DNA of 64,000 bases from Okamejei kenojei (lineage: Eukaryota). Positions 2,074 to 55,497 of this stretch are shown here, piece after piece. The translations under genes and the position numbers were made by a program. How positions within the stretch are numbered: the first letter of the stretch is position 1; each line of letters starts with the position of its first letter. The notes beneath the pieces are model-generated. The model was not told the DNA's origin. It was given only the letters and a program-made list of their open reading frames with translations, and searched no databases. Location: contig CM069154.1 of the NCBI GenBank assembly GCA_035221665.1, positions 5,580,001-5,644,000 on the forward strand, given 5' to 3'.

Positions 2074-2891
2074 TACGGACACTCAACATTCGTGAGATTT
2101 CATATGATAATATGGGACTAGAAGTAATGGACAATGCCGTACGGAATGAAGAGGAAAAAACTGGATTGGAAGACGTTTTCTGGATACTGACAATTAGTCT
2201 TAACATATAACTAATATAAACAAATAACACACATATTAAAATCACAACGCGGTTTTATTATCAATATGATTATTATTAATCAAGATTGCTCACTTTTGCT
2301 AATTAATATCACTAATAATTAATAACTAATGTCTCGTTAATGAATGGAGTTAAATTTAGCTATGGATCTCATTTGGAGATCCTTTTTTTCTAATAATAAT
2401 TTTTATTTTGTACTTTAAATTATATTCTTTATGTTTAATACTGCTTAGATTTTCTAAGTTAATTTTAGATATAGATACCCTTATATGACGATTACCACCA
2501 CTTTTTTCATTCCTTTAATATTACACCCCAGTTAAAAATATATTGATGGAATAATAATTCCTCAAATCTAGGAGCTGGCCAAGTTAATAACAACAATGCC
2601 GGAAGTCCTTAGATGGATAGCCAAGTTAATATGGCTAACACAAACTACAAATACTTTATTTGTAGTTTTTTTCCTTCTTTACACAAACTATTAATTTCTT
2701 TAACTATTCTTTACTATCCTTTTATATCTATTGTATTTTTCAGTTTGAATGGAGTTACACATTGGACCAATGGAGATATATTCGTGAGGTATATAAAAGA
2801 GATTTAAAATTCATCTATTCGGTGTTCGGGTGTAAGGTTAGGTCTACTGCGCTGACCCTTAGACTCTATTGCAGATTCCCACAAACTTAAA

Positions 2892-5800
2892 ATGCAAGAC
2901 TTAAAAAGAAATACGGGGAATGAGGGATTAACATTTTGCAGTTGGAACGTTAAAGGTATTAATGAACCAATAAAGAGAGGAAAAATATTGACACATTTAA
3001 AGGCAATTAAAGCTGATGTAATTTATATTCAAGAAACCCACTTAAAAAAAGACGCTGAAAACAGGTTGAAAGCTAAATGGATAGACAAAATATATCATTC
3101 TTCTTTTACGCATAAATCAAGAGGTGTAGCAATATTATTTCGTAAAGGTACTTTATTTAAACATACATCAACTATATCTGATAAAGATGGTAGATACATT
3201 ATTGTGATAGGAGAAATAAACACAGAAAAAATGATTTTCGTTAATATATATGGACCAAATTTTGATAGCCCTTTGTTTTTTAAGAAAGTACTTAACAATA
3301 TTCCGGAATTAACACACATTATAATTTGATAATTGGAGGAGATTTTAATTGTACATTAGACCCTTACCTAGACAGATCTTCAAAACAAAGAAAAACTAAA
3401 TCACATTCTAGTGATTTATTAAATGCATATATTCAAACGACTAATATTAAAGATGTTTGGAGAATAGAAAACCCTACTGGTCGAGAATACTCTTTTTACT
3501 CACCAGTACATAAAACTTACTTAAGAATAGATTATTTTCTGGTAGATGCAAAGCTTATCTCACTTACTTACGAACCCAAATATCATAATATTATAATCTC
3601 AGATCATGCACCATTAACATTTAAAATTAAAATAAATGGTAAAACAGAAAATTGTGGACAATGGAAACTTAATCCACAAATTTTTAAAAAATAAAACCAC
3701 TCAGGAATATATTATAACTCAAATTAAGATTTTTTTGAAATAAATGATCAACCAGAAAATATCTCGCTCTTTATTATGGGAAACATTTAAAGCATATCTT
3801 CGGAGGAATTATGATTTCTTTCACAAGCATTCCATAATAAAAAGATTCGGAAGGAACAACAGGACTTGGAAAGGGAGATTAAACAATTAGATATACAGAA
3901 TGCAACAAAACCAGATATAATAATACATAATAAAATTGTAGCATTGAAATATAAATTAAATAAAATATATACTGATCAAGTTTTAAAATTTTATCAACAT
4001 ACTAAACAATTACAGTTTGAATTTGGAGACAAACCCCAAAAATTATTAGCTCGACAATTAAGGAAAATTGAAGCTGAAAAAAATTATACATAGGATTAAA
4101 TCACAAAATAGTGATTTATTAATACAACCTAAAGATATTAATGAAAGATTTATGCAATATTATAAAAAATCTATATACTGTTTAAAGCGACAGTAAATAA
4201 AACAGAAAATAGATGCCTTTTTAAAAATATGTAACTTAAAAGGTTTGGATTTACAAAATAAAGAACTATTAAAATGCTGATATATTTCAATAAAAGAAAT
4301 CCAAGAATCTATTAGATCATTAAAAAATGGTAAAACACCGGGACCGGATGGTATAGGCTCGGAATTTTATAAAATTTTTCATGATCATATGGTCCATATT
4401 TGAAATCATTATATGAACAGATATATACACAACAGAAATTACCAGATACGCTGAACGAGTCTATTATAACACTTATACCTAAAATAAATAAAGACTTGGA
4501 TGAACCAGGATCATATAGAGCAATAGCTCTATTAAATACGGATCAAAAGATTCTAACAAAAATATTAGCACAAAGATTAAGTACAGTTGTCAATGAATTA
4601 ATTCATCCCTATCAAACAGGATTTATATCTAAAAGATATTCCTCATATAATCTAAGACGGTTATTTAATATTATATATTCGAAAAGAAGTGATAAAAAAG
4701 ATTTAGTAGTTATCTCGCTGGATGCAGAAAAAGCTTTTGACCAAGTGGAATGGCCTTATCTATTTTCGGTGATGGAAGCTTTCAAGCTCGGTGAGAAGTT
4801 TACTACTTGGATTAAATTGTTATATGCAAACCCAACAGCTAGAATAACAACAAACCGTATGTTATCTACTAAATTTAGTTTATCTCGAGGTTGTAGACAA
4901 GGCTGTCCTCTAATCACCTTTATTGTTCGCGCTAGCAATAGAACCTCTCGCCCAAAGGGTGAGATTACATCCGGAAATACATGGATATGATACTAAAGAT
5001 ACTAAGAATAAAATCTCCTTATATGCGGGACGATGTATTACTTTATATCACTGAACCGGAAAATAAGTATCCGAAATTTGTTAAAACTAATAACGGAAAT
5101 TTGGATTAATCTCAGGATACAGTATCAATTGGAATAAAAGTGAACTTATGCCAATAACGATGAATAATTTACAGATATTACAACAATTTCCTTTCAAGAT
5201 AACAAATGAAAATATTTAAATATCTTGGCATTTTCGTTACAAAAAGATTTGATTCTTTATTTAAATCTAACTTCCCGTTATTACTGAACAAATTAAATAA
5301 GAATATTTTATACTGGAAAAGTTTACCTATTTCAATGTTAGGTAAAATCAACGCGATAAAAATGATTTTTCTCCCACAATTATTATATTTATTTCAATTA
5401 ATACCGATATATCTCCCTAAAAATTTTTTTTTAAAATTAGACTCCCTAGTTACTAACTTTATTTGGGATTATAAGAACCACAGAATAAATAAAAAACACT
5501 TATGTAAAGCTAAAATAAATGGGGGATTAGCATTACCAAATTTTATGTTTTATTACTGGGCAGTTAATATCAAAAACATGAATTTTTGGCTAGAAGAAAT
5601 AGATAACAAACCAAACTGGTTAAAAATGGAAAAAGAAGATTGTTCTCCATTTGAAATTAGTTCTATAATATTTGCTAATACTAACGTGACTAAGAAAATT
5701 TATAGTGAAAACCCGATAATAGAAAACGGAATCCGCATTTGGAAACAAATAAAGAAAACATTAAAATTAAAATCTATACCGTTAGGTCTTACCATTGCCA

Positions 5801-6700
5801 ATAATTTTACATTTAAACCTTCAACGATGGATATTACAATGGAAAAATAAAGGAATTTTAAACATAGGGGATCTTTATAAGGAAAGCTCTTTTCTTTCAT
5901 TTCAAGAGTTACAACAAACTTATGGACTACAAAATAATGAATATTTTAGATATTTACAAATCAGAAACTATATCTCTGCAAATACACAAGAACTTAGAAA
6001 TAGAAAGACTGACATTTTAGATGAATGCTTGAATAAACATCCAAATACAGAAAAAATGATATCATATATTTATAATATTTTATTGGAAAGTGATATCCCA
6101 TCAACGGAAACACATAGACATATTTGGGAAAATGAATTAGGTCAAATAATAAGCTCAGAAATATGGGACGAAAGCTTACAACACATACATCATTGTTCGT
6201 TTAAATGCTAAACATGTTCTTATACAGTTTAAAATTCTACATAGACTACATTATTCCAAATCTAAATTACATAATATATTTCCAAAATTATCGCCTATAT
6301 GTGATAAAATGTCAAATCTCAGAAGCAAATTTGTCACATTCATTCACTAATTGTATAAAGATTGTAGAATATTGGAACGAAATATTTAAGATAATTTCGA
6401 ATGTTAATAATATTACAATGATTTCTGATCCAAAGTTAATAATACTTGGAATACTTGAAACGGACCAACTAATTACAATGAACCAAAGAATTTTTATCGA
6501 CTATTGTCTAATAATTGGGAAAAAATTAATACTAAAATTTTGGAAAGGCCCTGCATCCCCAACAATTAAAATGTGGAATACAGAAATGTCTGAGACACTT
6601 CATTTGGAGAGATTGAGGGCTTGTCCTTATGGATAGGTTAGATCTCTTCAGAGAGATTTGGTCTCCATATATTAAATATTTACAGGGTCATAACGGTTCG
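2892..6700 (+). pseudogene. L1 ORF2 (APE endonuclease plus reverse transcriptase), many frameshifts
   Basis: SWNVKG, IQETH, IGGDFN, RIDYFL, SDHAP (EN). YRAIALLNTDQKIL, SLDAEKAFD, RGCRQGCP, YADD-like, KYLGI (RT). Confidence 0.92.
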
Positions 6701-8391
6701 GCGCGAAGACTTGACTGAGGCCTGAATATCTGAATGGATGAAGAAACATATATAATAAATCATGAATATATCTCCAAGGACGAATTAATGAATAATATTC
6801 CAATCTCCATCAAACTTTCAACCACTCTCTTTTCTATTTTCTATTCTTTATTTTTTCTATCCTTAATTATAAAAAAAGTATAGAAACACATTATATTAAA
6901 ATTTTTAATATTAATGCGAATATAGATATCATTACTTGTATGAAAATATTATTGATGTCCTGTATTTTTAATTACATAAAATTGTGTAGTTTCAACTATA
7001 TAATAATTTAGAAATATAAAAGTCAATAATAATACAAACACTCTTATTATTATGAAAATATAATGAATATTATAGAAGTTCGGTTAATATTGTGTATTAT
7101 ACAATTATAACATGGGGGACTTGTATTTTGAAATCAGAGGAAATATGGATATTATGAGTAGTATGAGTATATTGCTAATACTAGGAAGATACTATACACA
7201 CTCCCAATTATACAAAATAATTAACCTTGATATGTATTATTGATAATATTATAAATAATATAAACAGTATCAATTTATCATTAATATTATATAGTTTTTA
7301 TCGTTGTATAAGAGTGTATTTTGTAATTACTTTGTTTCTATAATAAAAAAATAAAAAAAATAAAATAAAATTAAAACAAAATAAAATAAAATTTGAGATG
7401 AGTTCAATTTATTCCCATCTGCCATTACTCCAAATACAATCATTTAAGTATTAGGTTCCATTTTTATCTTAAATAATTTTGTAAATATTTCAAAAATATC
7501 ACTCCAGAATTTATAACGTTTTATGCAGGAGACAAAAGAGTGTGTTATCGTTGCATTTTGGGATAGACATTTATCACAAATGGGGGAAGTATTTGGATAG
7601 AATTTATTCAATCTAGTTTTTGAGTAATATAATCTATGTAAAATTTTTATTCAATTTTATCTTACATTAATCGAACATTTATGTATATATATCAAATACG
7701 TTTCCCATGTTTCCTTCGTAATTTTTATCATTAATTCTCATTCCCACTCTTCTCTAAGTGCCTCTGTCGATGGTTTAAAATATTTTTAAAATACTATCAT
7801 ATAAATATGATATTAATTTCTGTGAGTCAGCCTTAATGTTCATTGCTTCTTCCAGTGGATCTAAAGTTATGTTTTTGATATCTTTGTATGTATTTTCTCA
7901 TGAAGTCGCAGATCTGAAGATATTTAAAATATTGGTTATTTTTCAGTTAAAATTTTAATTGGAATTGTTGGAATGATAACAGATTTCCCATTTCAGACAT
8001 ATCACCGATCCTTTTAATTCCCATTCTTTCCCATTGATTATATGTTTTATCAATAAGAGATGGTTTAAATGAAGGGTTATTCACTATTGGCATTAACAAA
8101 GATAGGTTTCTTAATTTTAAGGATAATTTTATTTGTTTCCAAATTCTTATTGTCTCATGTATAATTAGGTTATTCTTATATATTGTGTTGTTCAGTTTTA
8201 TCGGGGAGAAGAGGATCGCTCCTATATTACAAGGAGAACAGTCCTCTTTCTCCATTCTTATTCATTCTGTCTGTTGGGTAGAACTGTCCAAGCAGTAAAT
8301 TATTCTTAATATGCACTGCCCTATAATAATACAAAAAGTTCGGAAGATGACATATCAGTCATCTCATGAGGATTCTTCGTTCATAAGTTAT

Positions 8392-9023
8392 AGAAACATA
8401 GAAAATAGGTGCAGGAGGAGGCCTTTCGGCCCTTTGAGCCAGCATCGCCATTCATTGTGATCAGGGCTGAACGTCCCCAATCAATAACCTATGCCTGCCT
8501 TCTCCCCCATATCCCTTGATTCCACTAGCCCCGAGAGCTCCATCTAACTCTCTCTTAAATCCATCCAGTCATTTGGACTCCACTGCCCTCTGTGGCAGGG
8601 AATTCCACAAATTCACAACTCTCTGGGTGAAAAAGTTTTTTCTCACCTCAGTCTTAAATGGCCTCCCCTTTATTCTAAGACTGTGCCCCCTGGTTCTGGA
8701 CTCGCCCAACATTGGGAACATTTTTCCTTCATCGAGCTTGTCCAGTCCTTTTATAATTTTATATGTTTCTATAAGATCTCCACTCATCCTCCTAAACTCC
8801 AGTTTAGAGCCTAGTCTTTTCAATCTTTCCTCGTGTGACAGTCCCGCCATCCCATGGATCAATCTCGTGAACCTACGCTGCACTGCCTCAATCACAAGGA
8901 TGTTCTTCCGCAAATTAGGAGTCCAAAACTGGACACAACACTCCAGATGTGGTCTTACCAGACCCCAATACAACTGCAGAAGAACCTCTCCACTCCTGTA
9001 CTGAAATCCTCTTGCAATGAAGT
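8392..9023 (-). mobile_element. CR1 (HER1-like) LINE 3' fragment
   Basis: LVRPHLECCVQFW, ESRTRGHSLRIKGRPF, FFTQRVVNLWNSLPQ, followed by the family 3'UTR. Confidence 0.88.
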
Positions 9024-9786
9024 TCATGTGTTAGGGGAGGAATGAGGTCATTTTGTCTACTCCGCCATTCAATCATGGCTGATCTATCTCTCCCTCTCAA
9101 CCCCATTTTCTTCCCTTCTCCCCATATCGCTTGACACCCATACTAATCGAGAACCTGTGAATCCTAAAAATACCCAGTGACTTGGCCCTCATTGGAAACA
9201 CGGTAAAAGCTTTTCCCTGTACGTCGGTACAGAACGACAACAATAAACTGAGCTCATGAATCACCAAAGTTTGTGAGACACAAGAATTGCAGGTGCTGGA
9301 ATCTTGAGCAAAACACAAAGTGCTGGAGTAACTCAGCAGGTCCGGCAGCATCTGTGGAAGGAATGAACGGACGATGTATAGGGTTCGGACCCTTCCTTCA
9401 GATGATGTGTGTGTGTGGGTGTGACAGTAAACGGGCAGGGGGAGAGGGTGAGGGGGCGGTTCCACCCCTCCTGCCACAGTGAGGGGACGGCAGAGTTTCT
9501 GGTTCTGGAGCAATCGTCTTTGGGGAAATGAGCCGCCAGCAGCAGAACCGCCGGTCCCCGTTCACGAGGTCCCCCCCTCCCCGTCCCCGTCCCCCCCCCC
9601 CCCTCACACACACATACACACACACTGCTCCTTGGACAGTGGGCTCATGGACCCCTGTAAATGTGCTCCCCCCCCTTCACCCCGACCCCCGGCGATGTGG
9701 CACCGAGTCACCGTCAGGACCGAGGCCGGGAATTCCCAGGCTGGAATGTTCACATCTGGGAGAGTGAGGAGAGATCGTCAACGTAC

Positions 9787-10113
9787 CTTCAGAAACCTTC
9801 AATGAGATGGAGGTCCTTTCATTGCTTGAAAAGATTCCCTTTTTTACTATCACACACCAGTAGCGTCCTTCATCACTCTTCTCCAGGTTGTCGATGGTTA
9901 CTGAAAGTATCCGTTGTGTTTTGTTATCAGTCATCGATGTTCTCCCTTGTCGTGGGTCATCAGTAGAAACCACGGTCTTAGATAACCGGTAATAATAACC
10001 TTTACTCCATAGCTTACTGTTGTCACTGTATTCCTGACCATACCGACATTCCACAGTGACCGACTGCCCCAACTCTCTCGTCACCTCCTTGGGTCCAGTT
10101 ATTCCCCCTGACC
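9787..10113 (-). CDS. Ig V-set exon (copy A) of a CD300/pIgR/MDIR-like receptor
   Basis: 327-nt open exon, acceptor cccacag, donor gtacgt, phase 1/1. Encodes GPKEV...GQSVTVEC.Y...KLW.KG...GRTSMTDNKTQRILSVTIDNLEKSDEGRYWC...SLKVSE, typical of the CD300/pIgR family. Confidence 0.9.
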
Positions 10114-10370
10114 CTGTGGGCACATGAATGATGAAAGATCACACACACTGCAGCAACACAAGCTGAGGTTTAACAATAAAAAAACATGTCATTTTGTGCT
10201 GTTCAGACAGGTTCATGGTTTTGCATAGATCATGTGTAGCAAGGAACTGCAGGTGCTGGTTTACACCAAAGATTGACACAAAGTGCTGGAGTAACTCGGC
10301 AGGTAGCCAAAAATGCTGGAGAAACTCAGCTGGTGAGGGCGGAAGCATCTATGGAGTGAAGGAAATAGGC

Positions 10371-10398
10371 GACGTTTCGGGTCAAGACCCTTCTTCAG
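10371..10398 (-). ncRNA. Minimal type-I hammerhead ribozyme motif in a Penelope-derived repeat
   Basis: CTGAAGA-a-gggt(cttg)accc-GAAACGTC: CUGANGA box, stem II, GAAA, palindromic ACGT, GUC site. Confidence 0.65.
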
Positions 10399-10477
10399 AC
10401 TGATGGCAGATCAGGCAGCATCTCTGGAGTAAAAGGGTAGGTGGCCTTTTCGGGTCGGGACCATTCTTGATCTCCTG

Positions 10478-10700
10478 GTTGCCAACCCTGTCAACATCCC
10501 TTCCCATTCCCACACTGACCTTTCTGTCCTGGGCCTCCTCCATTGCCAGAGTGAGGCCACATGCAGGTTGGAGGAACCGCACCTCATATTACGCTCAGGT
10601 AGTTTACAACCCAACGGTTTGAACGTTGAATTCTCTAATTTTAACTATCTTCTACTAACCTGCGCCCTCCCCTTCCCCCTTGACCCCTTTCTCCACCCTG
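10478..10700 (+). mobile_element. Penelope-like element 3' fragment (GIY-YIG endonuclease C-terminus)
   Basis: Translates VANPVNIPSHSHTDLSVLGLLHCQSEATCRLEEPHLILRSGSLQPNGLNVEFSNF, matching the PLE endonuclease tail. Confidence 0.75.
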
Positions 10701-11021
10701 GTGGGTGAGGGGCTGGTTTTCCCCCACCTGGTTCTGGAGGTTCTGGTCCCGGAGCGATCGTCTTTCGGGAAATGAGCCTCAGCAGCAGAACCGCGGTAGC
10801 TGGGATCTTCCGTGGGGCTGGTGTCTGACATCCCCCCCCTATACTGCTCCTGGGACAGTGGGCCCAGTAAATGATGTATGCACCACCACCACCCCCCCCC
10901 CCCCCCCCCCGTCCACCTCGACCCCCGGGGATGTGGCACCAAGTCACCATCAGGACTGAGGCCGAAATTCCCTGGCTGGAATTTTCACATCTGGGAGCGT
11001 GAGGAGAGATCGTCAACGTAC

Positions 11022-11345
11022 CTTCAGAAACCTTCAATGAGATGGAGGTCGATTCATTGTGTGAATGTTTTCCCTTTGCTATCACACACCAGTAGCGTCC
11101 TTCATCACTCTTCTCCAGGTTGTTGATGGTTACTGAAATTATCTGTTGTGTTTTGTCATCAGTTATCGATGTTCTCCCTTGTCGTGGGTCATCAGTAGAA
11201 ACCACGGTAGAAGATGACTGGTAATCATCACCTTTACGCCACAGCTTGTTGTAATCACTATATTTCGAATCATACTGAAATTCCACAGTGACCGACTGCC
11301 CCAACTCTCCCCTCACCTCCTCGGGTTCAGTTACTCCCCTTGACC
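11022..11345 (-). CDS. Ig V-set exon (copy B), tandem paralogue lacking the first canonical Cys
   Basis: 324-nt open exon with the same splice sites as copy A. About 73% amino-acid identity to copy A by hand alignment. VTVEF in place of VTVEC. Confidence 0.85.
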
Positions 11346-11405
11346 CTGTGGGCACATTAATGATGAAAGATCACTCTCACTGCAGCAACACAAGCTGAGG
11401 TTTAA

Positions 11406-13211
11406 GTAAGTAAGTAAGTAAGTTTATTGGCCAAGTATTCACATACAAGGAATTTGCCTTGGTGCTCCGCCCACACGTAACAACATGACATACAGTGACA
11501 GTTACGAATCACTCAGAAAATACTAAACATTAATAATAATAAAACATTAATGACAAAACACCATTGATCAAGCATGTGAACCAACAAAATATCAGATCAA
11601 AGGGAGGCTACAGATTTTTGGCTGTTGAGTAGAGCAACTACTCGTGGATAAATACAGTTTTTATGTGGCAGTTTTGACAGCCTGGAGTCGCCTTCCAGAG
11701 GGAAGTGATTCAAAGAGTTTGTGGCCAGGGTGAGAGGGGTCAGAGATGATCTTGCCTGCTCGCTTCCTGGCCCTTGCAGTGTACAGTTCATCAATGGAGG
11801 GAAGGTTGCAGCCAATAACCTTCTCAGCTGATCGGACGATTCGTTGCAGCCTCCAGGTGTCGTGCTTGGTGGCTGAGCCAAACCAGACCATGATGGAGAA
11901 GGTGAGAACAGACTCTACGATGGCCGTGTAGAATTGGACCATCATTGCCTGTGGCAGATTGTGCTTCCTCAGCTGCCGCAGGAAGTACATCCTCTGTTGT
12001 GCCTTTTTGACTGTGGAGTTGATGGTCGCCCCACACTTAAGGTCCTTGGAGGTGATATTTCCCAGGAACTTAAACGACTCCACAGATGTGACTGTGGTGT
12101 TGTTGATGGTGAGTGGGGTGAGGGGAGGGGGAGCTCTCCTAAAGTCTACAATCAATTCCACTGTCTTAAGAGCATTGAGCTCTAGGTTGTTGCTACGGCA
12201 CCAGGATGCCAGCTGTGACACTTCCTGTCTGTAAGCAGATTCCTCCCCATCCTGGATCAGTCCAATCAGGGTTGTATCGTCCGCAAACTTGGGAAGTTTG
12301 GCAGAGGAGTCTGTAGAGGTGCAGTCATTGGTGCAGAGAGAGAGTAGAGGAGAGGGGAGAGTACGCAGCCTTGCGGTGCCTCTATGCTGAGCGTTTGCGG
12401 GTTCGAGGTGCTTTCCCAGCCTCACATGCTGCTTCCTGTCTGTCAGGAAGCTGGTGATCCACCGACAGAGGGGTTCAGGCACAGTCAACTTGGAAAGTTT
12501 GGAGTGTAGTAGCTCTGGCACAATGGTGTTGAATGCAGAGCTAAAATCAACAAACAGGATCCTCGCATAGGTCCCCTGGTGGTCTAGGATGAAGTGCAGG
12601 CCCAGGTTGACTGCATCATCCACAGATCTATTGGCCCGATATGCAAATTGCAGAGGGTCCAATAGATCTGTTTGTGATATTTTTCAACTTGGCCAGCACA
12701 TGCCTTTCGAGTGTCTTCATGACTACAGAGGTCAGTGTGACAGGCCTGTAGTCATTAAGACAAGTAATCCTTGCCTTTTTGGGTGCAGTGACAATAGTGG
12801 AGACTTTGAAGCAGGCAGGGACAGTACATGTTTGCAGGGACTGGTTTAAAATGTCTGTGTAGACCGGTGCCAGCTGTTTGGCACAGAGCTTATGAGTCGA
12901 GGGGGAAACATTGTCAAGTCCTGGAGATTTCCGGCTTTTTTGTCCTCTGAAATGCCTCTCCTCCTCCTCTATTTTTATTGTTGATATTTGATAAGTGATG
13001 TTTTGCAGCACAGAGGGTATGGGTGATTTGGTGTGAAGTGGTGATTGGAGGGGGGTGGGCGTAGAAGGGCCCAGTCTTTGTGAGTGGGTGTGAAGTGACA
13101 GTATTTTCATACTGGAGTCTTGCCTTAAGTAGGTGTGAAGTGGTGAATGGGAAGGAGAGGATGCCGGGTCCATTCTTTGTAGACTGGGGTCTGGCTGGGT
13201 TGGTTGGTTGG
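11406..13211 (-). mobile_element. Rex1/Babar-type LINE, 5'-truncated, in the intron upstream of V exon B
   Basis: DPLQFAYRANRSVDDAV, ILFVDFSSAFNTI, KFADDTT. (gtaa)n tail. ttaa duplicated at 11402-11405 and 13212-13215. Empty site visible in the paralogue at 10165-10178. Confidence 0.9.
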
Positions 13212-13624
13212 TTAACAATAAAAAACATGTAATTTGTGCTGTTCAGACAGCTTCATGGTTTCGCAAAGATCATGTGCAGCAAGGAACTGCAGGTGCTGGT
13301 TTACACCAAAGATAGACACAAAGAGCTGGAGTAACTCAGCGGGACAGGCAGCATCTCTGAAGAAACCGACGGGTTTCAATCTCACTACAATAGTGTTCAA
13401 TCTCACTACAACCCACATCCCCATTGAACTAGTAGAAACAAGGAACTGCAGATGCTGGTTAATACACAAAAGGACACAAAGTGCTGGAGTAACTCAATGG
13501 GTCAGGAACTATCTCTGGAGAAAGTGGATAGGTTACGATTCATAGAAATATATAACCATAGAAAATAGGCGCAGAAGTAGGCAATTCGGCCATTCGAGCC
13601 AGCAGTGCCATTCAATATGATTTT

Positions 13625-14215
13625 CAATCAAAGACTTTATTGTCATTCAAAAATACACCAACAACTTCAAGTTGGAATGAAATTTCGTTGCATCTGGCTC
13701 ACCGTGCAACATAAAATAACAAAAGGATAAAATATATAAAAAGATCAAATAGATAAAAAGATAAAATAGATAATAGTGGCGGCACATTATATGGAATTCA
13801 AGAGTCTGATGGCTCGGGGGAAGAAGCTGTTGCAGAACCTGGCCGTTCACTCCTTATACTGCGATACCTTTTGCCCGAGGGCAGCAGAGTGAACAGTCCA
13901 TGATGGAGATGTGTGGGGTCTTTTATAATGCTGTTGACCTTGGACAAGCAACGTTTGCGCGCAATGTCCCGGATTGAAGGAAGAGAAGTCCCGATGATTT
14001 TTTCAGCCATCCTCACCACTCTCTGCACGGACTTCCAGTCGGAGGCTTTGCAGTCCCCAAACCAGACAGATGCAGCTGGTCAAAATGCTCTCTATGGTGC
14101 CCCTGTAGAAAGTGGTGAGGACGGGATGGGGAGGTGAGCTCTTCTCATCCGGCGCAGAAAGTGCAAACGCTGCTGCGCTCTCTTTACTAGTGATGCGATG
14201 TTTTGTGACAAGGTC
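13625..14215 (-). mobile_element. Rex/Babar LINE 3' fragment
   Basis: LTTFYRGTIESILTSCI, QRVVRMAEKIIGTSLPSI, HGLFTLLPSGKRYRSI. Confidence 0.8.
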
Positions 14216-16133
14216 AGACTGTTCATGGCTGATCATCCAAAATCAGTACCCTCTTCTGCTTGCTCCCCCTATCCCATGATTCCATTAGCCCTAAGAACTA
14301 TATCTAACTCTCTCTTGAATACATCCAGTGAATTGGCCTCCACTGCCCTCTGTGGCAAAGAATTCTACAGATTCACAACTCTGGGTGAAAAGGTTTTTCC
14401 TCATCTGGCCTACCCCTTATTCAGGTCTCAACCCAAAACGTCACCTATCGATGTTCTCCAGAGATGCTGCCTGACCTGCTGCCTTACTCCAGCACTTTGT
14501 GCTTTACTAAAGCTGAATAGCCAGCTGCCTGTGGTGTCAGTGGTGACTCAGCAGGTCAGGCAGTATCTGTGGAGAACATGGACATGTGACGTTTCAAGTC
14601 ATGACCATGAGATACTCCCTGACCTACTGAGTTACGTCAGCACTTTGTGCCCCATTGAACTAAACTTCCCGGCGTGTGGAGGAAGCTGGATCTGCCACTG
14701 ATGTTTCAAACTCCACGTCCACCTGGAATAATTATGATGTGTCTTTTTCACACAATGGACCAAACTGATCTAAGCTACATTTTAATATAAAATTGCATAC
14801 ATGTAAGGCTACAAGTAACAAACAAAATGTGTAGATCACCTCTGAAAAGCACATAGTTACAATACCACATGTTTTTGTGACTGTGAAATGATTTAAAAAA
14901 AAGTAATTTAATTAAATAGATCCTGGAAAACCAATAACCATTGGTGAAAAACCAATCCAGGCATTACATTTTGGGCTTCAGCCCCATCCTACCCTTTGGG
15001 CTTCTACCCCATCCTAACTTAGTTGCGTGTGTTAGTTGTCTGTGCATGATGTGTGTGTGGGAGGGAAGGAGAGAAGGGAGGGAGAGGGCCCGTGGCGGGA
15101 GCTGAGGCCGGGATCCGGGCGGATGGGTGTGAGCTGAGGCCGATGTTTGTAAACGTCGCTCCAACCCCCGGCCCGGCCCTCCCTGTATTGTTCACCGCGT
15201 CTCCCCGGGGAGAGAGAGGGGTGGAGCTGGGGCTGTGTGGGAAGCACGGCGACTGGAGGGGCGGGAGCGCTGCCGTGAGCAAACGACGCACCTCCCCCTC
15301 TCCCCCTTCTCCCTCTTCTCCGTTTCCCCTCCCCGTCTACCCCTTTCTTCCCCCTCCACCTCTCTACTCTATCTCCGCCCCTCTCTCCCCCCCTCCACCC
15401 GGGGTAGATCTACCTGAGCCGAGAGTAGATAACTCTGGCGTGGGGCCCCCTTACTCGCGGGGCCCAATTGGGAGCAATCGGTCCAAACGGCTTAAGGCCG
15501 GCCCCGGGTACATGGATAGGACAGGTTTGTAGGGACATGGACCTAACATGGACAGGTGGGACTAGTGTTGCTGAGACATGTTGGCCGGTGTGGGCAAGTT
15601 GGGCTGAGGGCCTGTTTCTACACTGTATCACTATGACTCTAACACATGTGAAACTCTGCAGATTCAGGATCTGGGATGGAGACACATGATCAGATCAGTC
15701 CAGGTCCGCTCACAAGCCACAAGACAAATGCCTTGAAGGAGAACTCAGAGGCTGGGGAAAGCACAGTGTGGAGAACAGCTCGAGCAGCAGAGTCTGTAAA
15801 GCAGCTGTTTTTTCTCAGGAGAGATTACCTCAACTTCTCCAAATGCTAAATTGGACAGTCACTCTGGTGCTTCCTCATTTGAGATGCCCACCTGTTCCTC
15901 TGGCTGGCTCTCACAGGTTTTTTCTTTGAATGTGCTAAGATTTAGATTCAACATTTCCCATTGCAGTGCGTGGAGGGAGTGCCGTGTGTCTTTGATGGAC
16001 ACTAAATGCTGGAGTAACTCAGCGGGTCAGGCGGCATCTCTGGAGAGAAGCAATGGGTGACATTTTGGGTTGAGACCCTTCTTCAGACCAACAGTCAGCG
16101 AGGGAGGAAGTCAAGAGATATGCAAGTGGTAAA

Positions 16134-16330
16134 GCATTTAGCTGATCTGCTGTCAAGTCACTGAGAAAGTTCACCTGGAGATAGTTTGCACCAGAATAGT
16201 GGAGCAAACTCTCTGGTCCAGGGCAAGAGTTACCCCAACACCCAAGATCAACAAGGCCAGCTGTCGGGTCATTTTCTACAGGGAGCTAGCTGTGTGCAAT
16301 TTGGCTGCACACAACACGACAACAACCGCT
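16134..16330 (+). mobile_element. Degenerate Deu-domain SINE (SacSINE1-like) in intron 1
   Basis: gggagctagctgtgtgcaatttggctgc resembles the recalled DeuSINE core; paralogous to 44161-44400. Confidence 0.5.
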
Positions 16331-16476
16331 GATGGAAGTCTCTACAGGAACTAATGAGTGTTGAGCACTTCATCATCAGCTCCCCACACAGTACAGAGAG
16401 GTCTGTGTTTACAAATAATTCAAAGCACTGGTAAATAATTCTAAAGGACAGAGCATTTTGTAAAACAACGATTTAC

Positions 16477-16573
16477 CTGATGTGAGACCAACAGCGACAA
16501 GAACCAACAGAGCGACTGTTCCCCTGGATCTGGGCCGTTTCTGGTGGGTGAATTCTCCCTGTCCCACCGCCAT
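16477..16573 (-). CDS. Signal-peptide (leader) exon of the minus-strand CD300/MDIR-like gene
   Basis: gacATGG Kozak context. MAVGQGEFTHQKRPRSRGTVALLVLVAVGLTS(G): basic n-region then hydrophobic h-region. Phase-1 donor G|gtaaat is in frame with both V exons. Confidence 0.8.
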
Positions 16574-16599
16574 GTCTCGGCTGCGTTGGATCGGTTTGG

Positions 16600-16720
16600 T
16601 TCCTGCACTGCGTTTGAGTTGTCCTCTTCCTCATTCACAACAGAAGTCAAACAGTCAATGTCCGTTTACTCAGGAAATGACTTTGCAGTGGTTCGAGACT
16701 AAGTTGGTGACTCACTTGCC
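16600..16720 (-). promoter_or_regulatory. Putative TATA-less myeloid-type promoter
   Basis: PU.1/ETS-like aatgaggaagagg (16623-16635), caggaaat (~16671) and AP-1 TGACTCA (16708-16714), directly upstream of the leader ATG. Confidence 0.45.
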
Positions 16721-18440
16721 ACCTCCCCCAGCCTCCTCACCACGAACAATGCACCTATCAGGAGTGGGCTGCAATGCTCTCCTGTTGCCTGGATTGGAGC
16801 ATCTCCTCGAAGCTCTGCTTCATCCTGGTGACGTTTGCCCGCTTGTCAGGCACTCTGTCCACCACCGCAAACATTCCCTTGCCCACCACCTCAACCCCCT
16901 CCCTCAAATGCGGGAACACTGTGTCTGAACATGTATGGGATTAGGAGGCAGAGATCAGCCATGCTTGAATGGCGGAGGAGACTCGATGGGCCGAATGGCC
17001 ATATTCTACTCCTGGAACGTGGAACTTGTGAACTGTTTGCCCACCTCAAAATGCGTATCACTAATTTGTCCAGCCTTCCTCAGCTTCTCATGTTTTGAAA
17101 CGTTACCCGGGAGAAATAGGGCACCAACGGAACGGAAATGAGGAAACATTTTTTTCACACAGAGTGTTGTGAGTCTCTGGAATTCTCTGCTTCAGAGAGC
17201 GGTGGATGCCGGTTCTCTGGATACTTTCAAGAGAGAGCTAGATAGGGCTCTTAAAGATAGCGGGCTCTTCCAGATGACTCTCTCACGCACTTACTATCCT
17301 ATCTAACTCTCTCTATTCTTCTTATTCTTCTTCTTCTTAAAATATAAAATAAGGAGTGGTACAGGAAATGTATTATGTTATTTTTGTCTTATATCATTGT
17401 AATGTACATTACTTCTAATAAAGACATTAAAAAAAAAAGATAGCAGAGTCAGGGGATATGGGGAGAAGGCAGGAACGGGATACTGATTGTGGATGATCAG
17501 CCATGATCACATTGAATAGTGGTGCTGGCTCGAAGGGCTGAATGGCCTACTCCTGCACCTATTGTCTGTTGTCTATTGTAAAATGCGATCAGATAAGTCA
17601 ACTCATGTCACCAGATAAACTCCTTGAAAGACAATTCAAATATTTGAGCATCGGAGACCAGGTAAAGCTTAGTTTGAAGATGTGATTCATAAAATCATGG
17701 AGTGATACAGCACGGAAATAGCTTGCCTATGCCGATCAAGATGCCCCATGTACGCTAGTGCCTCTTTAGTTTAGTTTCGTTTAGAGATACAATACGGAAA
17801 CAGGCCCTCTGGCCCACCGTGTCCGCACCATCCAGTGATCCCCGCACAGCAGCACAAATGTTTACATTTACACCAACCCAATTAACCTACAAACCTGTAC
17901 ATCTTTGGAGTGTGGGAGGAAACTGAAGTTCTCGGAGAAAACTATGTACAGACAAGCACCTGAAGCCGGGATTGAACCCGGGTATCTGCCGCTGTTATGC
18001 AATGTAAGGCAGCAACTCTACAGCTGCGCCACCATAAAAACCAGGCCTGCATTTGACCCCTGTCCCTACAAACCTTGCCTATCCACATACCATGTCCTAA
18101 TGCTTTTAAATGTTGTTAATAGTACCCGTCCCCACTACCTCCTCTGGACATGCTCCTTCCATGTACCCATCAGCTTCTGTGAGATAACATTGTTGAGGTA
18201 GGATTAGGGTTGTGTGAGGGAGAAGACAAAGGAGATTGCATATACTAGAATCTGGAACAATAGGCAGAACACCTGAAAAACTCAACGGGTCAAGCAGCAT
18301 CTGTGGAGGCAAAAAGTGCATGTTTGTATTCCGGCCGAGACACTACTTCCTGACTGAGGTTGAAAACTGGATGTTTACCAATATATGGCAGAACAAAGAG
18401 GAGATGGGTCAAACGTGGGTAAGTGGAACTAGTGGACTAG

Positions 18441-18793: not shown

Positions 18794-19237
18794 GACAAGA
18801 ATAAACTAATAAACAAAGATAACAGTGCTCCAGCCAGCCTCGCAATGGGCCGTCGAACTAGAGTCTCTAACCTGCCTAAATGGAAATAACCCTGAAACAA
18901 AACACTCAGGTCAGCCCTTATCCATCCCAATTCAATATTAATCGACAAATGTAGGTAATAATACACAAAGTTTTATGCCATGTGGCCAGGCCTCCTGCAG
19001 CTCACACCAGCAACCTGCTCACGAGTCAGGGTCGACGAAGAGAGAGAGATTTCTGGGAGCTTCTGGTATTTAAGGTTCCGATGAGTCACCCATCACCTGA
19101 CACAGCTTGGCCAATCGGGTACAGGAGCCCTTAACACCTTGATTCCGACTTCCAGCCACGGGGCCTGCACTCAGGAGAGAAACAAAAGAGTTAAGTACAT
19201 AGCATTCACCAGAGGGGGGGGGGGGAAGTACCTAACA
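18794..19237 (-). mobile_element. Truncated copy of the solo LTR (poly(A)/U5 end missing)
   Basis: Matches 32691-33148; ends ...cctaaca followed by acaag. Confidence 0.8.
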
Positions 19238-19242
19238 ACAAG

Positions 19243-19418
19243 TATAAGGAAGGTAGGTTTTGCAGAGATCATCAGAATCGATGACTGCTTCCAAATGATG
19301 TCCATTAATACTTTCAAACATGCTGATAAAATAAAACAAACGGAAAGTGTTTACATAAAGTATTTCACAAATTCAGGCCAAACCAATGCTCTACGAAGAT
19401 GATATCAATAGGTCTTGA
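19243..19418 (+). pseudogene. Orphan 3' end of a receptor paralogue: last 10 nt of the TM exon plus the cytoplasmic exon (19377-19418)
   Basis: tataaggaag|gtaggt ... ttcag|AKPMLYEDDINRS*, identical to 33154-33331. Confidence 0.55.
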
Positions 19419-19465
19419 CAAGATGTTTGTGTGCAGAATGAACTGAAGTGCTTGATGTAAATGTT

Positions 19466-19837
19466 GTAGAGCCCTGTCTAGCTCTCTCTTGAAAGCATCC
19501 AGAGCACCTGCCTCCACCGCCCTCTGAGGCAGAAAATTCCACAGACTCACCACTCTCTGTGAGAAAAAGTGTTTCCTCGTTTCCGTTCTAAATGGCTTAC
19601 TCCTTATTCTTAAACTGTGGCTCCTGGTTCTGGACTCCCCCAACATCGGGAACATGTTTCCTGCCTCTAGCGTATCCAAGCCCTTAACAATCTTATATGT
19701 TTCAATGAGATATCTTCTCATCCTTCTCAACTCCAGAGTGTACAAGTCCAGCTGCTCCATTCTCTCAGCATATGACAATCCCGCCATCCCGGGAATTAAC
19801 CTTGTAAACCTACGCTGCATTCCCTCAATAGCAAGAA
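19466..19837 (-). mobile_element. CR1 fragment (paralogue at ~33380-33752)
   Basis: QRRFTRLIPGMAGLSYAERMEQL...ESRTRSHSLRIR. Confidence 0.85.
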
Positions 19838-21679
19838 TCTATTCACTCAGTAAAGGTGCCATTTAAACAATGTTGCTAGCCTTCATATTTTGCTGAGCAG
19901 TTTTCAAGTCAAGTCTGGCTTATTCTTATATGCACGTATGGTGAGGTGCAGGTACAATGAAAATCACGCTTGTGGCAACATCACAGGCACATACACGTGG
20001 ACACACAAAAATATAAATGATACATAGGGTGTACGTGTGTACAGCAGTGGAGTTGCTGCCTTCATTTCAGCGCCAGAGACGCGATTTTGATCCTGACTAC
20101 GGATGCTGTCTGTACGGAGTTTGCATGTTCTCCCCATGACCAATTTTCTCTGAGATCTTTGGTTTCTTCCCACACACCAAAGACGTGCAGGTTTGTAGGT
20201 TAATTGCCTTCGGTAAAACTGTAAATTGACCCTAGTGTGTGCAGGATAGTGCTGGTGTGCGGGTGGGATCGCTGGTTGGCGTGAACTATGTGGGCCAAAG
20301 GTCCTGTTTCTATGCTGTATCTCTAAACTAAACTAAACTCAACTAAGACGTCCAATTCCACTGAAGAAAAGGTCACCATATCTCTCAAGCTAATTGGCAC
20401 TTTACTCAAAGCAATGGGTTCCACCTGACAATCTTGTTCTCTTTATTCACTGCATGTGAAAACAGCTGAGACTTAATTTTATTTCCTTGCCTCAATATAA
20501 CTTGAATAATCTTATGAATGAATGATGAATGAATGAATAGGTTTATATGAATGAATAGGTTTATTGGCCAAGTATTCACATACAAGGAATTTGCCTTGGT
20601 GCTCCGTTCGCAAGTACAATATGACATACAGTGACATTAGGAATGACACCTAAAACATTAAACATTAACAATAAAATATACTTTTATAACAGAACCAATG
20701 ACAATTACACTATCTCCAATTACAAGATTGATATCAACAGTACTCAAAACAAATATAGTGCAAGGTATATTCTTCTCATAACTTTTTTTATGCGCTGGAA
20801 CTGAATCCATGTCGAGGACATTTGGTCGATTTTGTTTTGTTAAATGCACGCGTCAAGAGTGCTTGATTGTCATATTTACCGACAAGGGAGCAATATAACG
20901 CTTTGTTTCAGGAGCACAACGAGTCTGCAGCTTTAGAGAGTTATACAGCACGAAACGCACCCTTCAGCCCAACTTGTCCATGTCGACCAAGATGCCCCAT
21001 CTACTCTAGTTCCTCCTGCCAGCGTTTGGTCCATTTCCTTCTAAACCAGTCCTATTCATGTAACTGTCCAAAAGCCTTTAAAATGTTTTTGTAGCACCTG
21101 CCTCAACTACCTCATCAGTTAGCTCATTCCATACACCCACAACTCACTGTGTAAAAACATGATGCCCCTCAGGATCCTATTAAATCTTTTCGCTTTCACC
21201 TGAAGCCTTGTCCCCGAGTCTTGATTCCCCTTTGCTAGGTAAGAGACTTGTTTCCCTTGTTACCCTTGTTTCCCTTTCCCGAACTCTGTTTGAAGAAAGG
21301 TCTCGACTCAAAACATCACCTATTCCTTTACTCTAGAGATGCTGCCTGACCCGATGAGTAACTCTAGGTTTTTGTGTCTATCTTCGGTTTAAACGAGCAA
21401 CACATATCCTATCTATTCCCCTCATTGTGCTTGTAAACACAATGCACACAGTTAATATATAATGTACAAAAATTAATTAGTTAATAAGTCCAATAAGGGC
21501 AAAAAATAACTGATGTCTTTAGTGCAACCAAAGACTGTCCATACTTGATAGTTGAGGTTAGTGTGCAGTGTTCAAAAGCCTAATTTTTGCTGCTGAGAAG
21601 CTGTTCTTGAACCTGGAGGTCACCGTTTTCAGGCTCCTCAACCTTCTTCCCAATGGCAGGAGTGAAACGAGAGCGTGGT

Positions 21680-22553
21680 CAGAGTGTCATAGAGCCATAG
21701 AGTGATACAGTGTGGAAACAGGCCCTTCGGCCCAACTTGCCCACACCCGCCAACAATGTCCCAGGTACACTAGTCCCACTTGCCTGTGCTTGGTCCATAT
21801 CTCTCCAAATGTGTCCTATCCATGTATCTGTCCAACTGTTTCCTAAATGATGGGATAGTCCCAGCCTCAATTACCTCCTCTGGCATCTTGTTCCATACAC
21901 CCACCACCCTTTGTGTGGAAAAAGATACCCCTCAGATTCCTATTAAATCTTTTCCCCTTCACCTTGAACCTATGTCCTCTGGTCCTCGATTCCCCTACTC
22001 TGGGCAAAAGACTTTGTACATCCACCCAACCTATTCCTTTCATGATCTTATACACCTCTTTCAGATCACCCCTTATCCTCCTGGGCTCGATGGAATAGAG
22101 ATCCTGCCTAATCAACCTCACCCTATAGCTCACACACTCTAGTCCTGGCAACATCCTCGTAAATCTTTTCGGAACCCTTTCAAGCTTGACAGTATCTTTC
22201 CTATATCATGGTGCCCAGAACTGAACACAATATTCTAAATGCGGTCTCACCATCATCTTAGACAACAGCAACATGACCTCCGAACTTCTATTCTCAATAT
22301 TCTGACTGATGAAGGCCAAAGTGCCAAAAGTCTTTTTGACCGTTTTATCTACCTGTGACTCAACCTTCAAGGAATCGTGCACCTGTACTCCTAGATCCCT
22401 CTGCTCTACAACACTACCCAGAGGCCTGCCATTTACTGTGTAGGTCCTGGCCTTGTTTGACGTCCCAAAATGCAACACCTCACACTTCTCTGTATTAAAT
22501 TCCATCAACCAATGCTCCGCCCACCAGGCCAATCGATCCAGATCCGGCTGCAA
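21680..22553 (-). mobile_element. CR1 3' fragment (paralogue at ~35779-36652)
   Basis: DLDRLAWWAEHWLMEFNTEKCEVLHFG, VRPHLEYCVQFW, ESRTRGHRFKVKG. Confidence 0.88.
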
Positions 22554-22800
22554 TCAAAGGGGTTATGGGGAGAAGGCAGGAGAATGGGGTTAGGAGGGAG
22601 AGATAGATGAGCCATGAATGAATGGCAGGGTAGACTTGATGGGTCGTATCACTTATGACCTGATGAGCGTATTACCAAATATTCCTCATTCGTGCCAGGT
22701 TTGTGACTCTTTTCACCATTTTCATTACTCTATAAACATTAATTTATGTTTGAAATGTGCTGAGAAGATTTGAAATTCGAGAGTTAACCTGCAAGATCAT

Positions 22801-22915
22801 TGTGGTTTCATACACAAGGTCTTGCTGACCTCTTCCTCATTTATGTTCCTCGTAATGTTTCTACTTAAACGTTATTTTGCAATGAAGAGGAAGAGCTGAG
22901 TGACTTATGAGTGAC
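22801..22915. promoter_or_regulatory. Putative myeloid enhancer motif cluster (duplicated at ~36898-37012)
   Basis: RUNX TGTGGTTT, two PU.1-like GAGGAAG, C/EBP half-site TTGCAAT and two tgagtgac AP-1-like sites within 115 bp. Confidence 0.4.
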
Positions 22916-24243
22916 AATAAACTTAACTAGCTCACTAACTAACAAAAACCTTCAAAATGTAAACTAACAACTAGTGCTAAAAATATTTTTGATATAGTGT
23001 AGTCCTTGTGCAAAGTGCAAATATAAGCTTGAATGTTATCATGGACAAAAGAGGGATTGGAGGGGATGACTGCGGTGAAAAAGCTCCTTTATTATGTTGG
23101 CTGCTTTCTTGAGGCAGGGTGGCACAGTGACACAGCGGTGGAGTTGCTGCCAGACGCCTGGGACAATCCTGACTACGGAGATTGTACGTTCTCCCTGTGA
23201 CCGCGTGGTTTTTCTCTGGGTGCTCTGGTTTCCTCCCACATTCCAAAGATGTGCAGGTTTGTAGGTTAATTGGCTTCTGTAATTTGTACCCAGTGTGCAC
23301 GATAGAACTAGTGTATGAGTGATTGCTGGTCAGAGCGAACTTAGTGGGGCAAAGGGCATGTTTCCATGCTGTGTCTCTAAACTACACTAAACACGACAGG
23401 AACAAGCCCTCAGGCCCACAATGTCCGTGCCGAACATAATGCCAGGAACCAGGCCATCTGATAGATGAACTGAGGCCCAGGCCAGTTTCAATTTTAGAAT
23501 TTCAAGCAGAAGCCCCTCAATTTTAGAGGCCCCCAAATCAAGATCCCTTTGAAGCTACAGGCATGAGGCCCATGCCAAATGGCACTTGTTGCCCCCCCTC
23601 TGATAGTGCTTGCCCTGAACAAACCCTTATCTGCCTGCACATAATCCATATCACTCCAGCCCTGCATATCCCTGCACTTATCTAAAAGTCTCTTACATCG
23701 CACTCTCGTGTTCATTTCCAATAGGTTTGAAGAAGCTGTTTGTGAAACAGGTGGAGTATAATTTCAAGCTTTTATATCTTCTGCCTTGATGGGAGAGGGG
23801 AGAAGAGGGGACGGCTGGGGTGTAAATGGTCCTTAATTATGTTGTCTGCTTTCTTGAGGCATCGTGAGGTATAGATGGCTCAATGGTGGGATACGATGCA
23901 TCTATAGAATCTATAACATAGATAGGTGATGTTTCGGGTCGGGGTCCTTCTTCAGACCCGTCAAAATGTAGAAACAAGAAACCAAAGATACTGGTTTACA
24001 CAAAAGACACAAAGTGCTGGAGTAACTCAGTGGGTTAGACAGCATGCCTGGAGATCAAATAGAAAAAAATTAACTGCAAAAGCTTGTTTACAAAAAGAGC
24101 AAGCAGTTGTGTTTGCCTCACCACATCCACACTTTATAACATTAACAAACAATTGTTCCTTCCTATTTTTTCTAAGTTGCTTCATACGTTTATTGTTTGG
24201 CCAATAAAATTTAATAATAAAAAATGTAACACATTACATTATG

Positions 24244-33163: not shown

Positions 33164-33289
33164 GTAGGTTTTTGCAGAGATCATCAGAATCGCTGACTGC
33201 TTCCAAATGATGTCCATTAATATTTTTCAAACATGCTGATAAAATAAAACAAACGGAAAGTGTTTACATAATGTATTTCACAAATTCAG

Positions 33290-53032: not shown

Positions 53033-55497
53033 ACCATAGGTGTAATGTGAAGGGGAAAAGATTCAATAGGAATCTGAGGGGTAATGTTTTCACTCAAAGG
53101 GTGGTGGGTGTATGGAACAAACTGCCAGAGGAGGTAGTGAGGCAGGGACTATCCCAACGTTTAAGAAAGAGTTAGATAGGTTAAGTCAAGTCAAGTTTAT
53201 TTGTCAGATACACATACGGGATGTGCAGTGAAATGAAAAGTGGCAATGGTCGCGGACTTTGTGCAAAAGAACAAACAAACAAATAACGAACAAACTACAA
53301 ACAGGGGATTGGGGAAGGTTACTTGGATAGGACTGGTTTGGAGGGATATGGGGCAAACGTGGGCAGGTGGAACTAGTGTAGCTGGCCTGGGACATGTTGG
53401 CTGGTGTGGGCAAGTTGGGCTGAAGGGCCTGTTTCCACACTGTGTCACTCTATGACTCTATGTGTATGGCAATTATTTTGGAAAAGAGCTTCATGAAAGC
53501 ATTTGAAGGCATTTCTACTGTTAAACCAGGTAATGGGGGAGAATCGAGAAGTTAACCCTCACTCTTGTTTAGTGCAGTTACCCCTTCTACTCAAGTAGTG
53601 TCACAGTACACTAATGTGAGGCATTTATCTGTTTACAATACTGACATTAGGATGGCATAGTAATGCAGCGGTAGAGTTGCTGCCTCACAACACCAGGTCA
53701 AACGTGGGCAAGTGGGACTAGTGGACTACAGTGGCACGGTGGCGCAGTGGTAGAGTTGCAGTCTCACAGCGTTTACAGTCGGGTTCGAACCTGACTACGG
53801 GTGCTGTCTGTATGGAGTTTGTACGTTCTCCCCGTGACCGCCTTGGTTTTCTCCGAGATCTTCAGTTTCCTCCCACACTCCGAAAATGTATAGGTTAGTA
53901 GGTTAGTTGGCTTGGTATAAGTGTAAATAGTCCCCAGTGCATGTAGGATGTTAATGCGTGGGGATCGCTGTTCGGTGCGGACTCGGTGGGCCGAAGGGCC
54001 AGTTTCTACGCTGTATCTCTAAACTAAACCCTTTAAGAATTTTGTAAGTCTCTATAAGATCCCCCCTCAATCGTCTAAATACTAGCGAGTACAATCCGAG
54101 TCTATCCAGTCTTTCTTCATATGAAAGTCCTGTACAGGTGTGTACAGGTGATCAATGGTCGGCGTGGACTCGGTGGGCCAATGGGCCTGTTTCCATGCGG
54201 TATCTCTAAACCAAACTAATTCTACTCTTATCACTTATGGCCTTATGACAAAAAATTCAGCCATCTTATATTACATTGGATTATTTTAATCATTATTCAA
54301 TATGCAGGGTTTTACACAGCAATTCAATTGGTAGTAAAGTTAAAAGTTCACATTCTGGAGAGCCAGCTTTGAGTTACAGTCTATGTACTGCTGTCTTTTG
54401 GGCGAATATCAGGATGTACAGACGTGTCTGCAAACATAGGTGCAGAAGTCGGCCATTTGCACCGTCGAGTCCACTTCGCCATTCAATCATGGATGATCTA
54501 TCTTTCCCCCTCCATCCCATTCTCCTGCCTTCTCCCCACAACTTTTGTCACCCTGAGTAAACCTGTCAATCTCCAATTTAAAAATATCCATTGACTTTTT
54601 AAATTGGAGATTGACAATTTAAAAATATCCACAGCCGTCTGTGGCAATGAATTCCACAGATTCATCACCCTCTGGCTAAAGAAATTCCTCCTCAAGTGGT
54701 CAACGTATATTGGACATAGGTGGAGTGTGGTGATGCTGTATGGTCAAGGTGATGAGATTTGTACATCTCCATCTGGTGAACACCCTCTCTGGCCCTGAAA
54801 ATCTAAACGATGATTATTGGGCGTCATTCCATCAGAACAACAATATTAATATAACGATTACCCTTAATTTTTATCTTATTCTTCTAACGTGTGTCCACAG
54901 TTCAATACTTGTAATCATTTAACCGTTTTTATATCCCCATTGCTCAATGCTTCAATGGTACTTTATTGTCTCATGCACATGGGTACAGTGAAATTTCTTT
55001 TGCAAAGAATTCAGTAAAAATCTTACTTTATATAAGCACAGCTGAAGCTACAAATAAGAGTATTAATAGCAGATTATATGATGCAGTACACAAGAGTTGC
55101 CACATTTCTGGCAGTATTTTATATTCTTAAACATCAAATTGGTAAAAAAAGTAGATTCTTATTTTGGGCTTAAAGGCCCGTTGTCGTGGAGACGGCACTG
55201 GGTGGGAGTTGCAGGCGTCGGCCTGGTGTGGCGATGTTGTCGGTGCCTCCACCACCGCCGCTCCGTGCCGCTGCAGGACATGTCCGATCCGCACGCTCGT
55301 CCACGATTTCTGTGGGACCTCCAGCGGCACCCGATCCACCGGCTACTGCAGGGCCTCCAGCAGCCCACTCGCGTTCATCTCTTCCCTCCACCACTGCCGA
55401 CCCCATCTCCAAGGTCTCGGCTGTTTTTTTCCTTGAATAACAATTAAAACACAATTTATAATCTCTACCATCAAATTTTACCCGAGGAAATAACCCA

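Follow-up and report, generated by a model that had tools for sequence, protein, structure and literature searches.

Three exons of a CD300-like V-set receptor gene with a likely rebuilt binding pocket in the skate Okamejei kenojei

Which receptor is encoded by the three exons on the minus strand of a 64,000-nucleotide stretch of the skate Okamejei kenojei (assembly GCA_035221665.1, contig CM069154.1, positions 5,580,001 to 5,644,000; hereafter the window), and what might it bind? An earlier note, made from the letters alone, had read the segment 9787..16573 as a leader exon and two tandem V exons of a receptor related to CD300, the polymeric immunoglobulin receptor (pIgR) and the modular domain immune-type receptors (MDIR) of skates. 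We consider it reasonably probable that these exons make up the 5′ part of a skate gene that belongs to a CD300-like subfamily of elasmobranchs and would encode a paired membrane receptor with a ligand cleft rebuilt away from calcium-bridged lipid.

The leader exon occupies 16477..16573 (97 nt), ends in a phase-1 GT donor and was delimited by splice and frame analysis, hydropathy and comparison with relatives. Its ATG stands in the context GAC-ATG-G, and the peptide resembles a signal peptide in having a basic N-region along with a hydrophobic core (maximum of 3.5 for a Kyte-Doolittle 9-mer). Intron 1 (11346..16476, 5131 nt) is rich in repeats and leads to the V-set exon VB (11022..11345, 324 nt), which is of a membrane-distal type; intron 2 (10114..11021, 908 nt) separates it from VA (9787..10113, 327 nt), which is of a membrane-proximal type. 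Both V exons have phase 1/1 and are bounded by an AG acceptor and a GT donor, the donor of VA being canonical and identical to that of VB. The joins leader-VB-VA (L-VB-VA, 249 aa), L-VA (141 aa) and L-VB (140 aa) are stop-free, and no stop, frameshift or splice-site loss was found in the 748 coding nt. The exon set is far beyond chance, and the earlier description of a 97-nt leader and two phase-1/1 V exons, with all three joins in frame, holds in its coordinates, splice sites and open frames. Both V exons matched the Pfam V-set above the curated cut-off (E-values 1.8e-12 and 6.5e-13), and a V profile run on six frames of the 64-kb window found no further V exon. VB and VA are products of a tandem exon duplication, the segments 9668-10173 and 10904-11405 being 88.5% alike. 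VA has the core Cys pair only (Cys22-Cys86) and an FG loop one residue longer than that of VB; VB has a single Cys and carries one N-glycan sequon.

The closest named proteins were RefSeq models of the skates Amblyraja, Leucoraja and Rhinoraja, labelled 'CMRF35-like' or 'pIgR-like', followed by those of electric ray, sawfish, stingrays, mantas and sharks. In tblastn with the Amblyraja radiata models P0009 and P0012 the leader matched at 32 of 33 positions (E 1e-17); 31 of 32 leader residues are identical, position 33 being a Gly encoded across the splice junction. Identity to the 13 nearest domains in RefSeq elasmobranch models is 75-83% for VA and 69-75% for VB. As skate models are up to 83% identical and have the same leader, the family is already present in RefSeq, and the gene adds a further copy to a family known from automatic models there. 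The same leader and the same loss of the C′ Cys described below are found in models of Amblyraja (XP_032898103-105), Leucoraja (XP_055510911/916/917) and Rhinoraja (XP_078276598), and XP_032898105 has the same order of a distal and then a proximal V domain as VB-VA. These models are predictions for which no functional study was found, and VB differs from them by the absence of the core Cys of strand B. A search for near-length homologs returned none.

Two domain trees were used, a smaller one of 56 distinct domains and a wider one of 67 rows, obtained from 88 domains found plus VA and VB by thinning at 88% identity within a genus. In the wider tree VA and VB fell inside a 37-row elasmobranch clade (support 100/98), the skate clade also having support of 100/98; other shark domains fell outside the 37-row clade and look like canonical CD300. 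The CD300/pIgR-related V-set membership proposed earlier is borne out by Pfam, sequence searches, fold match and named relatives alike, the nearest named proteins being CMRF35-like or pIgR-like and the nearest fold that of CD300lf. The MDIR of clearnose skate are described as a multigene family of activating and inhibitory CD300/TREM/pIgR-like receptors (Cannon et al., 2006, as cited in PMC3031540). No MDIR-named protein occurred among the 13 and 26 named matches or among the 20 named of 150 listed representatives, most proteins being unnamed. Compared by description only, the MDIR resemble the present genes as a skate multigene paired family and differ in their domains, which are reportedly of the I- or C2-set with 1-6 per protein, whereas the V-set scores of both V exons here were far above I-set.

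In single-domain comparisons VA scored 65 bits against CD300lf/CLM-1 and 34.5 bits against the best pIgR domain shown. The AlphaFold model of VA (predicted local distance difference test, pLDDT, 94.5) had CD300lf/IREM-1 as its top rows in Foldseek and VIA (Z 19.0-19.2, root-mean-square deviation (rmsd) 1.4 Å, 105 aligned), with trout pIgR (Z 18.0), CD300a (17.1), mammalian pIgR (at most 16.3) and TREM2 (15.7) below. The V fold is CD300-like, and neither by score nor by fold is VA closest to the pIgR domains (Z 19.2 versus 16.3 for the mammalian ones), trout pIgR being near. T-cell receptors, Ig V domains, NAR, TIM and TREM scored much lower and were ruled out as closest kin.

With mammalian CD300, and CD300lf/CLM-1/IREM-1 in particular, the gene shares the V-set fold (∼35% identity, Z 19, rmsd 1.4). 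The paired inhibitory and activating design, a trait of CD300 and similar receptor families, and the mucin stalk are also found in the relatives of the skate gene. The mammalian definition of CD300 given in PMC3031540 includes a single V domain and a YWCR-type motif in strand C, and PMC3031540 and PMC5648872 add a second disulfide, located in the C-C′ hairpin. Here strand C reads LWSK in VA and LWRK in VB and thus has no WC(R) motif, two V exons are present instead of one (1-5 V in the relatives, and two V domains likewise in some bony-vertebrate CMRF35-like models), the FG loop is 2-3 residues longer, the second disulfide is missing and Asn takes the place of Asp98 of CD300lf. Because four CD300 features fail (second disulfide, WC motif, single domain and Asp98), the gene is classified from its sequence as a CD300-like variant in an elasmobranch subfamily and not as a CD300, and orthology with CD300 is not claimed. 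With mammalian and teleost pIgR it has tandem V domains and the superfamily branch in common, but the match per domain is weaker and the skate genes form a multigene paired family. The pIgR domains mostly carry a Cx7C pair (bioRxiv 2022.04.21.489081). The label 'pIgR-like' in cartilaginous fish likely marks paired innate receptors and not Ig transporters.

The two missing pocket features are connected with ligand binding in CD300lf, where Cys36-Cys44 lies at the bottom of the phosphocholine cleft and the metal (calcium) is bound by Asp98 (PMC6166816). The corresponding Cys positions are Ser36/Ser44 in VA and Arg36/Ser44 in VB. Among the 56 domains both C/C′ Cys were present in all 18 from stingrays and mantas and all 13 from bony vertebrates, and in none of those from skates (0/20), Narcine (0/4) or Pristis (0/1); the first Cys alone was retained in one skate domain and in all 4 Narcine domains. 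At the Asp98 site Asn was found in VA (Asn97) and in VB. In the 67-row tree this site holds Asp in 4/37 and Asn in 26/37 rows inside the clade, versus Asp in 26/30 outside it. Since both domains are without the extra disulfide and the calcium-binding Asp, the binding pocket has likely been rebuilt, as far as can be read from aligned residues. The C/C′ pair was also absent from a catshark domain and from second domains of sturgeon and paddlefish (P0047, P0059, P0089), and loss of the disulfide therefore recurs outside skates. The tree contained 6 changes of the state 'both Cys', which are not a loss count as they include 2-3 rows that are apparently mis-scored (Mustelus P0029 D3, Megalops D3, Hemiscyllium D2). 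Canonical CD300-like domains, which have the two disulfides and in most cases Asp, occur in sharks too (P0033, P0070, P0029, P0157); in the Heptranchias model P0033 such domains are fused to a subfamily gene, which suggests that the two types are neighbours. One subfamily thus spans both pocket Cys (stingrays and most sharks), one (Narcine) and none (skates and sawfish), and this series across rays and sharks is a natural test of the role of the second disulfide and the metal site of CD300 in ligand choice. A description of the remodelling was not found in the literature searched, part of which subject the 2006 MDIR and 2014 zebrafish PIGRL papers may cover.

The amino acid sequences have changed fast around the cleft. 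VA and VB differ by 35 nonsynonymous and 5 synonymous changes (nonsynonymous rate dN 0.159, synonymous rate dS 0.069, dN/dS 2.3), and their intron flanks are identical at 57/60 and 100/109 positions (92-95%) versus 284/324 (87.7%) in the exon. Across the 20 skate domains the mean entropy of the CC′ and FG loops was 1.40 versus 0.49 in the other loops (p=0.0008), and positions 42 and 99, aligned to the CD300lf cleft residues Arg42 and Met100, were among the four most variable; these loop and rate statistics are to be read with gene conversion and the non-independence of paralogs in mind.

In the relatives a leader and between one and five V domains are followed by a mucin stalk rich in Ser and Thr and by a membrane segment. 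Two kinds of ending occur, either a plain membrane segment followed by two tyrosine motifs like the immunoreceptor tyrosine-based inhibitory motif (ITIM), or an Arg-bearing WxxLRW segment followed by a short tail. Sharks show the same two types. The Rhinoraja model P0002 has an inhibitory-type membrane segment and then an Arg-bearing one, and is either a fused model or a case of alternative membrane exons. By analogy with these relatives the product would be a type I membrane immune receptor with the order leader, VB, VA, mucin stalk, membrane segment and tail, of which the last three are predicted to be encoded left of the window, and it may belong to a tandem array of paired receptors. As an inhibitory receptor it would rely for signalling on ITIM-like tyrosines, as an activating one on pairing of the membrane Arg with an adaptor that carries an immunoreceptor tyrosine-based activation motif, and it would be expressed likely on myeloid cells. 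The structure of CD300lf suggests that a ligand would be bound in the cleft flanked by the CC′ and FG loops. As this cleft has neither the disulfide floor nor the carboxylate calcium ligand, its ligands are probably variable, and likely microbial or protein, rather than calcium-bridged phospholipid head groups.

A wider scenario is tentative and on balance doubtful. A second, lineage-specific CD300-like paired subfamily of elasmobranchs would have replaced the calcium-binding Asp, after which skates, sawfish and electric rays dismantled the C-C′ disulfide and so opened the CC′ and FG loops to an antibody-like diversification. The results would be fast-evolving germline pathogen sensors that moved from lipid to protein ligands, in arrays tuned by exon skipping and with a VB that works without any disulfide.

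Several points weigh against a receptor with a rebuilt cleft. Residues were mapped to CD300lf by alignment register through the rodent domain P0082 and not by residue-level superposition. Two of the three protein ligands of the CD300lf metal are backbone carbonyls (PMC6166816), and Asn at the Asp98 site could still bind metal. CD300b from which the second disulfide had been removed still formed its complex (PMC5648872), so the loss need not alter every function. The comparison of nonsynonymous with synonymous sites alone was not significant (p=0.11 by Fisher, 0.06 by binomial test); p=0.012 was obtained with synonymous and flank sites pooled, in a test that was picked after the data were seen, and gene conversion may have raised the identity of the flanks. 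The relatives are known from automatic annotation, and several of the models are plainly fused or mis-ended (e.g. P0002, P0014, P0033). The loss of the core Cys in VB is also compatible with a sequence error or with pseudogenisation at an early stage, and the gene may be incomplete, as the 9.8 kb downstream hold neither a stalk exon nor a membrane exon.

The last two points lead to the reading of the locus as a recent pseudogene or truncated duplicate of a birth-and-death cluster, in which insertion of a long interspersed nuclear element (LINE) severed the 3′ exons and the Cys loss of VB is decay. In VB the core Cys of strand B is replaced by Phe at position 22, which makes it the only one of the 56 domains without that Cys, and its end branch is somewhat long (0.22 versus a median of 0.10); the gene is possibly damaged at this exon. 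The AlphaFold model of VB kept the V fold (pLDDT 92.1) but says nothing about stability, since predictions of this kind hardly respond to one substituted residue. On the 3′ side the absence of a membrane-segment exon from the window, reported in the earlier note, was confirmed: tblastn with the tails of relatives and two tail profiles on six frames gave no match in 1-9786 and no stalk, membrane or tail exon was found left of VA, the tail profiles giving only noise-level matches over the window. The ∼9.8 kb left of VA is mostly LINE. Decay is nevertheless unlikely, given that the 748 coding nt are intact, the leader is almost identical to that of complete models and the excess of amino acid change is unlike a neutral pattern. 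Introns at the locus are moreover large (5.1 kb, and ∼39 kb to a possible upstream tail), so that a gap of 9.8 kb is unremarkable. Much less can be said for a secreted decoy made by read-through of the VA donor, a case we rate as very improbable. Read-through meets a stop after 36 residues, the Narcine model P0003 ends directly after its last V domain, and carp SITR is a soluble two-domain CD300-like protein (PMC3031540); but the VA donor is canonical and the same as that of VB, the only poly(A) hexamer in 8300-9786 (at 8674) lies within a repeat, and most complete relatives have a membrane segment. Least credible of all is a true polymeric Ig receptor that moves IgM across epithelia. Whole-protein phmmer did put pIgR first and many relatives bear the label 'pIgR-like', but this rank arises because five weak domain matches are summed, CD300 is nearer per domain and by fold, the relatives form multigene paired sets with ITIM-like motifs or Arg-bearing membrane segments, and bird pIgR domains sit on long branches far from the VA/VB clade in the 56-domain tree.

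A further reading, compatible with a CD300-like paired receptor, treats VB and VA as interchangeable cassettes, with L-VB-VA, L-VA and L-VB all made by alternative splicing; the earlier note had spoken of swappable ligand-binding domains. Every join is in frame, the two acceptors are 95% alike, and RefSeq isoforms vary in V number, the Leucoraja models X1 and X2 differing by the first V domain (4 versus 3 V) and the Narcine isoforms having 5 versus 4 V. However, phase 1/1 is general for these exons, Gly being found at 22/22 V-exon junctions counted across 7 relatives, in-frame skipping is a general property of Ig exons of this phase, and 'swappable' was an overstatement. VB belongs to a five-row clade (97/98 in the 56-domain tree), whose four other members (P0004 D1, P0006 D1 and D2, P0009 D1) never adjoin the stalk in the skate models seen, and VA falls among domains of the proximal type; both placements speak for a fixed order of a distal and then a proximal domain. 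The last V is retained in the isoform sets seen, and mis-mapped reads can create isoform models in near-identical arrays. Free exchange of the two domains is therefore improbable. The default product is likely L-VB-VA-stalk, as in XP_032898105, to judge by these clade positions. By analogy with the isoform models, a transcript that skips VB is plausible; loss of the core disulfide may make VB unstable, and L-VA would be an in-frame one-domain receptor that bypasses it. No relative's model among those seen ends in a VB-type domain, and the L-VB form is without parallel in them. Among sequencing runs compared by shared words no RNA run was listed, and the best DNA run had 0.56 of the words. When 4 of 24 runs were aligned to 9000-17000 at 85% likeness, intronic repeats dominated, and among the 15 joints listed, with 7767 more unlisted, none fell on an exon junction. 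The contigs of run X6 (kind unknown) cover the bins of the three exons and not the two unique intron bins covered by the DNA run X1. A contig of X18, a run that is probably DNA, is 93% alike, ends a single base short of the VA acceptor and continues with 130 unmatched letters. Both are weak hints at the level of paralogs and were not used as evidence.

Other features of the window lie outside the three exons. On the minus strand, tblastn placed a possible tail exon at 55371..55451, which matched the tail of P0012 at 64% (E 1.7e-6) and that of P0004 at 59%, is preceded by AG and was weak in the profile search. It may be the last exon of an upstream paralog that lies right of the window and has an activating-type tail, or a repeat exonised by gene models; the assignment is uncertain. 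Just upstream of the leader, 16919-16761 (minus strand) is 74% alike to the C-terminus of the Rhinoraja model P0002 and deeply covered by repeat contigs, and probably represents a repeat, or else a conserved upstream element, absorbed into that model. Intron 1 contains a decayed LINE reverse-transcriptase frame (11661-12683). A direct duplication of ∼5.6 kb (18794-24376 versus 32691-38473, 96-97% identity) held no family exon in the profile search. Two decayed L1-like LINE copies, at 1188-6953 (plus strand) and 45148-49986 (minus strand), are 77-83% alike. Two related reverse-transcriptase elements, at 28127-30494 (plus strand) and 58834-61222 (minus strand), are 64% alike and have what we take to be a DIRS-like look.

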